DNA from: a virus
Lineage: Duplodnaviria > Heunggongvirae > Uroviricota > Caudoviricetes
Virus record (IMG/VR): IMGVR_UViG_2565956624_000008
Length of the DNA: 64,000 bases
Reading direction: 5' to 3' (one strand)
The notes under the pieces are model-generated. The model worked only from the letters and a program-made list of their open reading frames with translations. It did no database searches and was not told the origin of the DNA. Position numbers and translations under genes: made by a program. Of the stretch, positions 23,255 through 26,346 are shown piece after piece. How positions within the stretch are numbered: the first letter of the stretch is position 1; every line of letters starts with the position of its first letter.

Positions 23255-23458
23255 ATGACAATCGTAAAAACCCATACCGGCACCGTGATCACCAAAGACG
23301 GTCCGCAGGTAAAAAAACTGCACCAAACAGAGCGGATGTGGGTCGTCGGCAAAAATGAGTTTTACCACAAAGATACCGGACGCCGCCACTTTGCAGAAAA
23401 TACGCGCCGTCGACTGCTGTTAGACACCATCAAGCCTATCGAGGTGAAGCATGTTTAA
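23255..23458 (+). CDS. small hypothetical protein, 67 aa
   Basis: ORF in same-strand array. Confidence 0.4.
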   Translation: MTIVKTHTGTVITKDGPQVKKLHQTERMWVVGKNEFYHKDTGRRHFAENTRRRLLLDTIKPIEVKHV

Positions 23459-23690
23459 ACAGAACGAAAAAGCTATCGCTCAAATTGCTGATTATATCCC
23501 GCGTGCGTGCCGGGGTATGCAGTTGCAGGAAGCCAAAGCGCGCCTGGAGAAAAAAATTGCGCTCTATATTGATGACGGCTGTGATGCTGCCGTTCTTAAC
23601 GCGGCGTTCGCACCAGCTCTTAACAGTCATACTCGGGAGTCTTTTTTTTCGTGCATCGAAGCGCAACTCCGCAAAGGAGGCAGCCAGTGA
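23451..23690 (+). CDS. small hypothetical protein ending LRKGGSQ, 79 aa
   Basis: Shares the conserved C-terminal junction of the downstream paralog array. Confidence 0.45.
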   Translation: MFKQNEKAIAQIADYIPRACRGMQLQEAKARLEKKIALYIDDGCDAAVLNAAFAPALNSHTRESFFSCIEAQLRKGGSQ

Positions 23691-24388
23691 GCAAAATTAA
23701 TTACCGGGCACTGCGTGAGATAGCAAAACAGGCAACACAGGGCGAATGGGTCGCATTTATTTCGCCGGGTACTGGTACGTATGCGGTGCATACGCCCGGT
23801 GATAAACGATGTGAAGATGTTATCAAATGGACCGGCTTTGATGGGCTGAAAAACGCAGAGAACAACGCTCGTTATGTTGCCGCATTCAACCCAAAGGTTG
23901 CACTGGCGCTACTTGGTGAAATTAAGCGCCTGGAGGACACAAATATTGATGCTATGTGCCGAATAGCACCGCTTGAGACTAAGCTCGCGGCGCTGGTGGC
24001 AGAGAACGCCGGGCTGAAACACGCAATGGCCGTAACTCTTGAGCATGTGTCGGTCACGGATGCAGGGCAGGCTGGTGTTGCTGCAATGATTATCAACGAT
24101 GCCCTACACCACAGCGAAACTCCAGCTACCGATGCTTTTCTGGCTGAAATTCGTGCGGAAGCACGCAACGAGGGGATTAACTATACCGCCAGCCGTCTTG
24201 CTGCTGCGTTCAATCACGGATTTATCAATAAGTCTTTGCGTGAAGTTTTCGACGTTACACGCATGATTTTGTCAGCGAAAGAAGAGTTGGCTAATGAAGC
24301 GCATCCGATTGATGGCCTGTCTGGTGAATATGCGGAGAAATCCCTTGAAGAATGGGCGGAACAGATTCGCAAAGGAAGCAGCCAGTGA
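23687..24388 (+). CDS. Ead/Ea22-like paralog 1 (GTG start after AGGAGG)
   Basis: SKINYRALREIAKQATQGEWVAF, ALVAENAGLK, PATDAFLAEIRAE, QIRKGSSQ. Confidence 0.55.
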   Translation: MSKINYRALREIAKQATQGEWVAFISPGTGTYAVHTPGDKRCEDVIKWTGFDGLKNAENNARYVAAFNPKVALALLGEIKRLEDTNIDAMCRIAPLETKLAALVAENAGLKHAMAVTLEHVSVTDAGQAGVAAMIINDALHHSETPATDAFLAEIRAEARNEGINYTASRLAAAFNHGFINKSLREVFDVTRMILSAKEELANEAHPIDGLSGEYAEKSLEEWAEQIRKGSSQ

Positions 24389-24675
24389 ATATCGACACGA
24401 CAATAACGATCGATACGCTCCTAAATACCGGTCTGGCACTTCTCGGTTGGCTTTACATCATGTCCCGCACATGGCGATGGCTGGGTTCCATTTTCCTAAA
24501 ACAGTGGAAAAAACGGCGCAAACAGGAACTACGCCAGAAGGCATTAGAAGCGTTCTATGACGCATTTGAGCTTAGCCGCATTGAACCAGGTACAACAGCC
24601 AGGATAGCGACAAAAGGCGACCTGATGATAGTGATGTTCCGACAGGAGAGAGCAGAGAAAGGGGAATCAGCATGA
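24385..24675 (+). CDS. small membrane protein, 96 aa (GTG start at conserved junction)
   Basis: Hydrophobic segment LLNTGLALLGWLYIM; junction AAAGGAAGCAGCCAGTGA. Confidence 0.45.
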   Translation: MNIDTTITIDTLLNTGLALLGWLYIMSRTWRWLGSIFLKQWKKRRKQELRQKALEAFYDAFELSRIEPGTTARIATKGDLMIVMFRQERAEKGESA

Positions 24676-25319
24676 AATTTTCCAAATTTTCTGAGTTGGT
24701 GAATCGTATTTTGTCCAACAACCACAGCCATCGTCGCGATATGGATGTAACAATCGTTGTTCATTCGCCTGGCAGCATTGGTTCAACACCTTCAGTTGAG
24801 GTTCAGTCAATTCACGCTGGTTTTGATTGGGATTCCGGGAAAGTGCTTATTTTCCCATCACAGCCACTGACCACGCTAACACCAGAACAGATTACTGATA
24901 TCACTGATAGTGTGCGCAAAGGTCAGTCTTGGCACGCATATCAGGAATACAAGAAGCATCAAGAGCAGTTGGAAAAATTGTCGATTGAACTGGATGCCGC
25001 AAAACAGCGCATTGCAGAGCTGGAGGGTAATCGCACGGCGCTGGCAGTGGAGAATGAGCTGGCTCGTAAGGCAGTTCAGGCATTCTGCGATGTTGTTGGC
25101 GACAACACCGAGGTTATCGCTGAGGTGGTTGGGCGAGATGGCGTTCTGGTTATTTTGGAGGCCATGAAGGCAACAGGAAATATGCCAGCCACCGATGCTT
25201 TCCTGGCTGAAGTACGGGCGCAGGGCGTGGAGATGTTTGCGGAGTGTGCATACACGCTTGAACATCATGATCACGCAGTAGCCTTCGCCGCTGAGCTTCG
25301 CAAAGGAGGCAACCAGTGA
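24672..25319 (+). CDS. Ead/Ea22-like paralog 2, 215 aa
   Basis: ALAVENELARKA, PATDAFLAEVRAQG, ELRKGGNQ. Confidence 0.55.
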   Translation: MKFSKFSELVNRILSNNHSHRRDMDVTIVVHSPGSIGSTPSVEVQSIHAGFDWDSGKVLIFPSQPLTTLTPEQITDITDSVRKGQSWHAYQEYKKHQEQLEKLSIELDAAKQRIAELEGNRTALAVENELARKAVQAFCDVVGDNTEVIAEVVGRDGVLVILEAMKATGNMPATDAFLAEVRAQGVEMFAECAYTLEHHDHAVAFAAELRKGGNQ

Positions 25320-25903
25320 GCAAGATTGACTATCAAGAACTGCGCGAGGCGGCGGAACAGGCAACGCAAGATGAATGGGTAGCATATATTTTGCCGGGTC
25401 ATAACGGCATTTATCCTGCGCGCACGTCTGAGGGTAGGCATTGCGGATACTTTATTGACTGGCCTGGCGTCTGTCAGGGGCGGGAGAGCATCAGCATCAG
25501 AACCTACGCAGTGAATTGCAATGACGCATGGCTAAACACCGAAGGTGATGACATCTCCGGCTCATACGTTAAGTACAAAGACCATCAGGAAGTGGTTGCC
25601 GCTCTTGAGGCCAAGTGCGCGGCGCTGGCAGTGGAGAATGCGGCGCTTAAACAGTCGGAGAAGGAATTTAATAACTTCTGTCGTCAGGAGTACTACGGTT
25701 GGGAGGACAACTTCACGGAAACCCCAGCTACCGACGCTCTCCTGGCTGAAGTACGTGCGCAGGGGGTGGATATGGCTCGTAACGCGATGATTGATTTTGT
25801 TGATGGTGAAGTTGGGCCAAACAAGAACGTTCCGGGGCTGATTAGAGGCGCAGAGATATGCGTAAGTATTGCTGAACAGCTTCGCAAAGGAGGCAACCAG
25901 TGA
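25316..25903 (+). CDS. Ead/Ea22-like paralog 3, 195 aa (GTG start)
   Basis: SKIDYQELREAAEQATQDEWVAY, ALAVENAALKQ, PATDALLAEVRAQG, QLRKGGNQ. Confidence 0.55.
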   Translation: MSKIDYQELREAAEQATQDEWVAYILPGHNGIYPARTSEGRHCGYFIDWPGVCQGRESISIRTYAVNCNDAWLNTEGDDISGSYVKYKDHQEVVAALEAKCAALAVENAALKQSEKEFNNFCRQEYYGWEDNFTETPATDALLAEVRAQGVDMARNAMIDFVDGEVGPNKNVPGLIRGAEICVSIAEQLRKGGNQ

Positions 25904-26346
25904 GCAAGATTGATTATCAAAAGCTTCGTGAAATCGCTGAAAAAACAAAAATTGCTGGTGAAGCACCTGTAATGCCCTTCGATCAGCGAATTAATGCGCT
26001 TAACGATTTTATGAAGCACTTTTCGCCAGATATCGCGCTGGCACTGCTGGATGAACGGGAAAGAAACCAGCAATACATCAAATCCCGCGACCAGGAGAAC
26101 GAGGATATTGCGCTAACGGTAGGGAAGTTGCGCGTTGAGCTTGAGGCAGAAAAACAGCGGGCAAAGGATCTGTTTATGGAAAATGCTCGGCTTAAGTCAG
26201 GTATAGCCGGTCTGATACACCTCGGTATTCGATATGCAGATGTTGATGTCATGAAAATTGCTGGAGATGCCCAGCTTTCTACCCCATGCACTGACAGCAT
26301 CATAAACAGCATTGCAACAGGCATTCGCATCAACGGAGGTGAGTAG
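25900..26346 (+). CDS. Ead/Ea22-like paralog 4 (short), 148 aa (GTG start)
   Basis: SKIDYQKLREIAEK N-terminus shared with paralogs. Confidence 0.5.
   Translation: MSKIDYQKLREIAEKTKIAGEAPVMPFDQRINALNDFMKHFSPDIALALLDERERNQQYIKSRDQENEDIALTVGKLRVELEAEKQRAKDLFMENARLKSGIAGLIHLGIRYADVDVMKIAGDAQLSTPCTDSIINSIATGIRINGGE

Follow-up and report, generated by a model that had tools for sequence, protein, structure and literature searches.

The DNA analysed here, a stretch of 64,000 nucleotides (hereafter the window) from the IMG/VR virus record IMGVR_UViG_2565956624_000008, is by its gene content a P1-like phage-plasmid. At 23451-26346, on the + strand, it carries six tightly packed genes, g1 to g6, neighbours overlapping by 4 nt. 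An initial annotation had described this run, with bounds that are indeed those of g1 to g6, as a tandem array of Ead/Ea22-like paralogs joined by a conserved junction. We deal here with this junction, with the genes that it joins and with their combinations in related genomes.

Results

Genes and shared blocks of the array

Three of the six genes, g2, g5 and g6, pass the gathering cut-off of the Ead/Ea22 family in Pfam (PF13935; 27 bits, whole-protein score), and g1, g3 and g4 do not. The description as an array of Ead/Ea22 paralogs therefore holds for the former three only: g1 is unrelated, belongs to no Pfam family and shares nothing but its tail with the Ead-type genes of the array; g3, a DUF4752 gene, interrupts the run; and g4 has no Pfam match, its inner blocks and its tail being all that it has in common with Ead/Ea22 genes. 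In PHROGs, g2, g4, g5 and g6 all fall in phrog_368. The exact protein of g2 is present in 609 database members. Likewise, five consecutive genes had been said to end in LRKGG(S/N)Q; g1, g4 and g5 do so, while g2 ends in IRKGSSQ, g3 in EKGESA and g6 in RINGGE.

The modular make-up proposed for the products is borne out. A search for direct repeats retrieved genuine repeat families, with shared blocks of three kinds: the junction (repeats of 33-115 nt at 76-88% identity), a coiled-coil block and a PATDAFLAEVRA block. The coiled-coil block, of the ALAVENA type, is found in g2, g4 and g5 and more weakly in g6; the PATDAFLAEVRA block in g2, g4 and g5. Direct repeats and alignment together also place a SKI(D/N)Y..LRE block in g2, g5 and g6.

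Sequence and translational geometry of the junction

On the + strand there are exactly three copies of the 22-nt sequence AAAGGAGGCA(A/G)CCAGTGAGCAA, at 23673, 25302 and 25886, for an expectation of 0 in shuffled sequences. As first described, the next gene starts at a GTG inside this sequence, and in each of the three copies (J1, J3 and J4, Table 1) this GTG overlaps the TGA of the upstream gene. Read in the upstream frame, the copies are CGC AAA GGA GGC A(A/G)C CAG TGA; the GTG takes its first letter from CAG and the other two from TGA (a GTGA overlap), and the Shine-Dalgarno (SD) sequence AAGGAGG precedes it with a 6-nt spacer. All three thus combine an SD inside the upstream open reading frame (ORF), within 5-9 nt of the start, with a start/stop overlap. 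J3 and J4, 584 nt apart, share a longer perfect run of 36 nt (25294-25329 and 25878-25913).

By its geometry the junction is a translational-coupling joint, and the genes on its two sides would be coupled by the general mechanism of overlapping stop and start codons (reviewed in PMC12548453), with which it shares the SD placed 6 nt before a GTG overlapping TGA. The initial annotation had left this out: the junction is foremost a ribosome-binding site (RBS) with a stop/start overlap. The surroundings are built alike. From 23255 to 27459 most genes adjoin the preceding one or overlap it by 1-8 nt, mostly as ATGA or GTGA, h93 and h118 starting 2 nt beyond the preceding TGA; and for most starts an SD-like motif lies within the last codons of the preceding gene. 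The upstream tails EVKHV, EKGESA, NGGE, TKGE and GKGE each bear GAGG, AAGG or GGAG before the next start, and the tail of g6, GIRINGGE, holds the SD (GGAGG) of the gene that follows.

Two side observations concern this geometry. The Q-L codons (CAGCTTC/CAACTCC) can pair with the SD (GGAGGC/GGAG) into a hairpin of 4-5 bp with a GCAAA(G) loop, for which the folding z-scores are significant at J3 only; in such a folding model this weak hairpin could hide the SD before the upstream ribosome reaches it. Apart from it the site has no dyad symmetry. Farther downstream, two longest-ORF calls probably reach too far upstream: 26813-27094, likely to start at ATG 26885, and 27368-27724, likely to start at ATG 27461; AAAGGAGAGTGAT precedes both ATGs, the SD being encoded in the K-G-E* tail of the upstream gene.

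The C-terminal tail

In a comparison of unique junction contexts, the three third-codon positions that lie inside the SD (-12, -9 and -6) are 98-100% invariant (with some ascertainment bias within -17..+7) and the adjacent third positions vary. The rare codon GGA accounts for 14% of the glycine codons in gene bodies and for 50% of those in the last six codons. When contexts are anchored on the downstream N-terminal peptide alone, an SD is found in 74 of 78 distinct upstream contexts and AAAGGAGGC in 61 of the 78, whatever the upstream gene. Since the third positions of the SD are invariant, the SD is independent of the upstream gene and GGA is enriched in tails, the constraint appears to act largely on nucleotides, and the K-G-G-(N/S)-Q tail to be mostly imposed by the RBS of the downstream gene. 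The last two or three codons (NQ, SQ, KQ, VIQ, ADK) mostly track the downstream gene as well: g1 ends in GGSQ in the window, before N2, and in GGNQ before an N5-type gene in another locus (L044). This places the crossovers inside the island of shared sequence, upstream of the SD spacer.

A similar reasoning may apply to lambda. All Ea22 proteins end in K/R-G-E, a motif whose significance was called unknown (Dydecka et al., PMC7093339). At the DNA level the +GE ending of lambda ea22 is AAAGGAGAGTGA, and in the window KGE endings are followed by the ATG of the next gene 2 nt beyond the stop (26885 and 27461). Given these tails, the Ea22 “+GE” motif is best read as the SD of the next gene. Lambda ea22 itself (NC_001416 29847-29860, minus strand; ~1335-1350 in our extract L093) ends in AAAGGAGAGTGAGATC, the same SD-plus-stop joint, with ATC in place of the next-gene ATG of its relatives; it looks like a vestigial coupling joint without a downstream gene.

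Module combinations in related genomes

Parts of the region were found in 470 phage records, in 2949 of 5426 complete Escherichia coli genomes and in 930 of the 72,556 plasmids searched. Matches covering at least 80% of the respective query were far fewer: no phage record, 4 of the 5426 genomes and 1 of the 72,556 plasmids. Copies of each array gene, 95-100% identical, also occur elsewhere, for instance in lambdoid prophages and, beside different genes, in other P1-like plasmids. The composition of the array, compared across related genomes, is thus far from invariant.

Modules were mapped in 209 related loci; a scan of genome contigs with g2 yielded only 8 loci. Chimeric arrangements are found at the level of domains. 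One locus (L045) has a single gene made of N5, CC5, mid4 and the C-terminal domain (CTD) CTD2; another (L074) has a gene running from N5 to CTD2, then DUF4752, then a gene from N4 to CTD5; L037 combines CC4, mid4 and CTD2, and L020 N4, a CC2-like segment and CTD4. At the level of genes, one upstream module stands at the joint before many downstream genes and vice versa; the C-terminal module of g5 alone sits before eight different genes. In 80 IMG/VR loci, chosen solely for containing the exact 22-mer, this sequence joins about 21 upstream to about 22 downstream module clusters in 54 distinct pairings. The joint is not reserved for Ead genes, a point that the initial annotation had missed: DUF4752 and several other families also stand downstream of it. 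Among 3081 pairs of junction contexts, 468 are at least 90% identical on one side and less than 60% on the other, so that a short conserved gene-boundary sequence is found with non-homologous sequence on both sides.

In the P1-like plasmid of ETEC4085 (L001 5254-6462; NZ_CP122640.1 73314-74522) we also observed an IS4-family insertion sequence, ISVsa5, between the DUF4752 gene and the g4 homolog; it changes the end of the DUF4752 ORF, which there encodes 122 aa with a different tail.

Homology breakpoints

To locate breakpoints, the window region was compared by BLAST with all loci, unselected, and each distinct alignment endpoint within the array was counted. Of these 111 endpoints, 77 (69%, for 26% expected) fall in the junctions or in the two intragenic blocks, whose combined share of the array is 26%; with the other gene boundaries added, the count rises to 90 (81%), and the interiors of modules are nearly empty. 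Clustering concerns the two intragenic blocks too, not gene ends alone, and a smaller, earlier set of loci analysed likewise gave the same clusters in junctions and two inner blocks. Three near-isogenic comparisons give clearer evidence than these counts. From 24115 rightwards L003 and L001 match the window at 99.5% identity, and their breakpoint is at the PATDAF block of g2. Phage Ro157c2YLVW keeps the order of the window as far as 25056 (95.9-98.6% identity by span), where the breakpoint is at the coiled-coil block of g4.

In the third comparison, plasmid pEC00592_4 matches the window at 99.98% identity over 20900-25336 and 25878-27754, with exactly g5 missing: g4 leads directly into g6, the 43-nt overlap between the two alignments lies within the joint, and this joint falls within the 36-nt identical run of J3 and J4. 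Judged from the two sequences, this is the outcome predicted by homologous crossover in the junction; g5 would have been either deleted by unequal exchange or inserted by a double crossover, with both frames kept. The proposal of the initial annotation that the junction could promote shuffling is therefore supported on three sides, by chimeric genes, by the clustering of breakpoints and by this precise presence or absence of g5 at 99.98% identity.

The proteins and lambda Ea22

Lambda Ea22 is an early, non-essential, tetrameric and pro-lysogenic protein, built from a short N-terminal region, a coiled coil and a variable CTD (PMC7093339, PMC10834534); lambdoid genes of the ea22 type are early and driven by pL (PMC10834534). 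The product of g6 aligns with it over 87 columns (Ea22 residues 1-78, g6 residues 1-87) at 57% identity (E 1.5e-24), which establishes homology over the N-terminal helix and the first part of the coiled coil; its ending GIRINGGE is of the same type as the GIRIKGE of Ea22. The products of g5 and g2 match Ea22 at residues 1-21 only. As the g6 alignment ends at Ea22 residue 78, it does not extend to the solved mixed alpha-beta dimer fold of the lambda CTD, and a sequence search of PDB with g2, g5 and g6 (E<=1) gave only noise, leaving these CTDs without a solved relative. The N-terminal domain of g2 was modelled as a helix, a beta-hairpin, a helix and a long helix, with a predicted local distance difference test score (pLDDT) of 83; it has no informative structural neighbour in PDB, and in BFVD it matches only uncharacterised phage proteins, some of them from actinophages. 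A full-length AlphaFold2 model of g2 (pLDDT 51, on a shallow alignment of close homologs) was not used. PADLOC gave no defence-system match for g1-g6, and NCBIfam none for the array genes.

The three-part plan of lambda Ea22, PF13935 and P22 Ead is common to g2, g5 and g6. On the other hand, the CTDs here are unrelated to that of lambda Ea22, and several paralogs stand in a row instead of a single one; the carrier is a P1-like phage-plasmid and its pmgT operon, not the exo-xis region under pL, and control is probably exerted by C1 instead of CI and pL. The products are probably oligomeric coiled-coil scaffolds with a common N-terminal domain and swappable CTDs facing host targets, and they probably appear at an early stage after derepression. 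From the analogy with Ea22, a role in modulating the lysis/lysogeny decision or the physiology of the host is probable.

Minus-strand ORFs of the region have no family support, save one PHROG match that is probably an annotation artefact. This ORF (25983-26333), antisense to g6, matches phrog_13760 (E 2e-19) and overlaps the most conserved, lambda-Ea22-like part of g6; phrog_13760 is probably a family of mis-called antisense ORFs and not a real gene. A promoter and terminator scan inside the array was uninformative, and an Rfam scan of 20000-30000 found no RNA family.

Genomic setting

The flanks of the array encode PmgS and Pap and, farther off, RepA/ParAB, Dam, Ban, HumD, Phd/Doc and Lpa. 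By blastn against P1 (NC_005856), window 20000-23137 is 98% identical to P1 82045-85182 and window 28247-28587 corresponds to P1 85188-85528; the segment between them is absent from P1 (Table 1). The P1 gene pmgT (309 aa) joins the sequence before 23137 to that after 28247, without homology where the two meet: the first ~232 codons of pmgT correspond to g242, and its end to the C-terminal portion of a 295-aa gene of the window (27735-28622). P1 pmgT, annotated as “putative morphogenetic function”, may therefore be a chimera produced by loss of a 5.1-kb accessory segment.

The OpmgT region is 98% identical to P1 84263-84507, where P1 annotates OpmgT, P1pmgT and P2pmgT, and OpmgT/Op88 is likely the control point of the operon to which the array belongs. 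As the C1 operator and the predicted pmgT promoters are conserved, the array is probably transcribed from these promoters and expressed on C1 derepression. Between the promoters and g242 we noted an unannotated ORF of 28 codons, MNTAFKIIMAAIYFWLFSITFGGIVAHG (22347-22433, +, SD caggag); P1 has a near-identical sequence with no coding sequence annotated there, and it could encode a small hydrophobic peptide or leader.

The order g67-g1-Ead is also found after recT/exo in the early-left operon of the Shiga-toxin (Stx) phage PA2, at ~92% DNA identity; on this synteny we take the 5.1-kb segment as lambdoid-type cargo within a P1-type genome. Neither the P1-like carrier nor the lambdoid character of the segment appeared in the initial annotation. 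GC content does not distinguish the segment from its surroundings. [quoted passage not shown] Those passages record the variability against P1 genes and mention neither Ead/Ea22 cassettes nor the joint. In CRISPR interference (CRISPRi) screens P1 pmgT/U/V and lambda ea22 are non-essential (PMC10695390).

The same operon holds two further pairs of tandem paralogs. Both h59 and h62 (within 26519-26883) start with MKNRKAK and belong to phrog_1380, with a 21-nt repeat at 26518 and 26694; h122 and h295 (27091-28622) both start with MTTITKER (phrog_60/660). In pEC00592_4 the segment 27755-28202 is replaced, inside the h122/h295 pair, which suggests the same style of modular exchange.

Table 1. Coordinates of the array, its junctions and its setting (window positions unless stated)
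Feature	Coordinates	Strand	Description
OpmgT/Op88	22248..22264	+	C1-repressor operator ATTGCTCTAATAAATCT, one mismatch to the C1 operator consensus; overlaps predicted pmgT promoters
g242	22443..23171	+	First long gene in the operon; homologous to P1 PmgT over the N-terminal 232 aa of the latter; phrog_874
P1-absent segment	23138..28246	+	5.1 kb, blastn vs P1 NC_005856; holds the whole array and more small paralogous genes
P1 pmgT joint	P1 NC_005856 85183-85188 (L092 9183-9189)		Compared with window 23138-28246
g67	23255..23458	+	67 aa, phrog_1226; syntenic in Stx phage PA2 (early-left operon), next to g1 and an Ead gene
g1	23451..23690	+	79 aa, non-Ead, phrog_1344; tail EAQLRKGGSQ
J1	23658..23735	+	Exact 22-mer 23673-23694; tail codons, SD AAGGAGG 23674-23680, codons of the g2 N-terminal helix
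J1 start/stop	GTG 23687; TGA 23688-23690	+	GTG overlaps TGA
g2	23687..24388	+	233 aa, Ead/Ea22 family, PF13935 93.3 bits; tail IRKGSSQ
g2 inner blocks	23964-24021; 24122-24172	+	Coiled-coil; PATDAF (repeat families/alignment)
J2	24356..24388	+	Diverged copy AAAGGAAGCAGCCAGTGAAT (24366-24388), leads into the DUF4752 gene g3
g3	24385..24675	+	96 aa, DUF4752 (PF15944, 144 bits), one hydrophobic helix; tail EKGESA; not an Ead paralog
g4	24672..25319	+	215 aa, different N-terminal module (phrog_6026), ATG start; tail ELRKGGNQ
g4 inner blocks	25012-25062; 25185-25235	+	Coiled-coil; PATDAF (repeat families/alignment)
J3	25285..25364	+	Exact 22-mer 25302-25323
g5	25316..25903	+	195 aa, Ead/Ea22 family, PF13935 65.2 bits; tail QLRKGGNQ
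g5 inner blocks	25596-25653; 25724-25774	+	Coiled-coil; PATDAL (repeat families/alignment)
J4	25871..25948	+	Exact 22-mer 25886-25907
g6	25900..26346	+	148 aa, Ead/Ea22 family, PF13935 81.3 bits; tail GIRINGGE
Predicted hairpin sites	23665-23684; 25294-25313; 25878-25897		RNA folding

Discussion

We consider it probable that the coupling joint, whose conservation serves translation and the flanking terminal helices, doubles as an island of homology for the general recombination of genes and domains. The run would be made of translationally coupled accessory cassettes, as in the early-left (exo-xis/ea) operons of lambdoid phages, placed here in the C1-repressed pmgT operon. Each cassette brings its own RBS, GGAGG(C) followed after ~6 nt by GTG, and this RBS lies inside the last codons of the preceding gene, the GTG overlapping its TGA. 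With the end of a C-terminal helix (A-A/E-Q-L-R) on one side and an Ead-type N-terminal helix (M-S-K-I-D-Y-Q-x-L-R-E) on the other, the joint persists as an island of near identity, about 35-70 nt long, between genes otherwise unalignable. Homologous recombination in this island, for which host RecA, possibly with P1 Ref or with Red/RecT of co-resident lambdoid prophages, are the candidate agents, could then swap, delete or add whole genes while leaving both frames intact. The two intragenic islands, the coiled-coil ALAVENAxLK block and PATDAFLAEVRAQG, would do likewise for protein domains.

Several observations weigh against this explanation. About 19% of the endpoints (21 of 111) lie outside blocks and gene boundaries. 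Alignment endpoints are not independent events and, as alignments between orthologs run on through the blocks that paralogs share, the clustering is partly built in and says nothing of the position within a block. Some joints of the region are clearly not homologous, for instance that of g242 to an Ead gene in L007 (ATTCAGG|GGGCAACCAGTG) and that of the P1 pmgT deletion. Upstream of the SD, A-(A/E)-Q-L-R is conserved over ~12 nt, which is more than an RBS requires, so that a constraint on the peptide or on RNA structure may act there as well. The structure searches with the array proteins, finally, were uninformative.

A bolder form of the same idea would make of the joint a selected, portable “adapter” (RBS, stop/start overlap and terminal helices), and of the Ead/Ea22 genes and their neighbours a combinatorial library of lambdoid and P1-like temperate phages, the modules being reassorted in frame at high frequency. 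We hold this to be unlikely. If true, it would mean population-level diversity of early host-interaction proteins, a shufflon-like function driven by general recombination.

Quite unlikely in our view is that the junction is conserved solely for its function and that the mosaic arose by random illegitimate recombination with selection for intact genes, as in the Hendrix model, the junction merely marking the joints that survived. The non-homologous joints just mentioned and the 21 scattered endpoints would fit such an origin, and the constraint at the level of the SD could by itself account for much of the conservation of the core. However, random joining would not be expected to place the indel of g5 inside a perfect 36-nt repeat in plasmids that are 99.98% identical, nor to gather breakpoints at two blocks internal to genes; the co-variation of tail codons with the downstream gene places crossovers within the island, and an identical 22-mer recurs in 54 pairings.

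It is very improbable that the decapeptide A-(A/E)-Q-L-R-K-G-G-(N/S/K)-Q is conserved as a protein signal, for processing, conjugation or degradation in the manner of ubiquitin-like LRGG ends, with DNA conservation as a by-product. The tail is indeed carried by at least 20 unrelated C-terminal modules, and its conservation reaches ~12 nt upstream of the SD, outside the pattern used for the search. But a peptide signal leaves the invariance of synonymous SD positions and the use of the rare GGA codon unaccounted for, and unrelated genes of the same operon also end in K-G-E, K-G-G or N-G-G-E whenever another start codon comes next. The final residues track the downstream gene, and Pfam, PHROG, PADLOC and NCBIfam showed neither protease nor conjugation genes in the neighbourhood.

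That the array arose by recent tandem duplication on the spot, its copies then diverging until the shared blocks were what remained of the duplicated sequence, seems to us extremely improbable. Such an origin would agree with the tandem, same-strand layout, with the shared blocks and with the common assignment of g2, g4, g5 and g6 to phrog_368. Neighbouring paralogs, however, are only 27-34% identical as proteins, their DNA is unalignable outside the blocks, and they are not each other's closest relatives, copies 95-100% identical being found in other genomes. Synonymous differences are few in the blocks (by eye; PAT4 vs PAT5, 45/51 nt) and saturated elsewhere, which fits exchange better than an old duplication.

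P1 encodes the site-specific recombinases Cre and Cin elsewhere, and a short site is repeated at the boundaries of cassettes, but a shufflon- or integron-like recombinase target has practically no chance of being the explanation: crossovers, instead of falling at one point, range from about -33 to +76 relative to the GTG (in a histogram of pairs selected by flank identity, hence partly circular), the site is without dyad symmetry, no recombinase gene adjoins the array, and lambdoid prophages without Cin or Cre use the same joint.

The locus, by the explanation that we prefer, the coupling joint doubling as an island of homology, is a case of a known phenomenon, the mosaicism of accessory or early phage operons at boundary sequences, and its gene family is known too. 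For lambdoid phages it is an established concept that crossovers take place at conserved boundary sequences (Susskind and Botstein 1978; Clark et al. 2001, both as summarised in PMC3233612). With the “linkers” of phage HK620, in the terms of that summary, the joint shares its place as a short boundary sequence between non-homologous modules, its many combinations and its position at breakpoints. It differs from the linkers as they are summarised there in that the boundary is resolved to an SD and a GTGA overlap; two intragenic blocks allow crossovers at the level of domains in addition; a near-isogenic pair one cassette apart documents a very recent event; and the segment has entered a P1-type genome. 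Compared with translational coupling in general, one joint here serves many unrelated pairs of genes, is an island of homology and dictates the C-terminal peptide. As far as the literature was searched, the molecular definition of the joint, the explanation of the Ea22 C-terminal motif by an RBS and the domain-level crossover blocks are new, as are the transfer of this cargo into P1-like phage-plasmids and the natural one-cassette difference between near-identical plasmids.

The mosaicism of phages has been debated between homologous crossover at short boundary sequences and random illegitimate joins filtered by selection. With a 36-nt joint, two intragenic blocks, hundreds of natural combinations and a near-isogenic pair, the locus offers a compact and tractable case for the homologous route. 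The reading of “KGG” and “+GE” tails as an encoded RBS calls for caution in treating such tails as protein motifs. Finally, cargo of lambdoid early operons circulates in phage-plasmids of the P1 type, a group widespread among clinical E. coli, Salmonella and Klebsiella.

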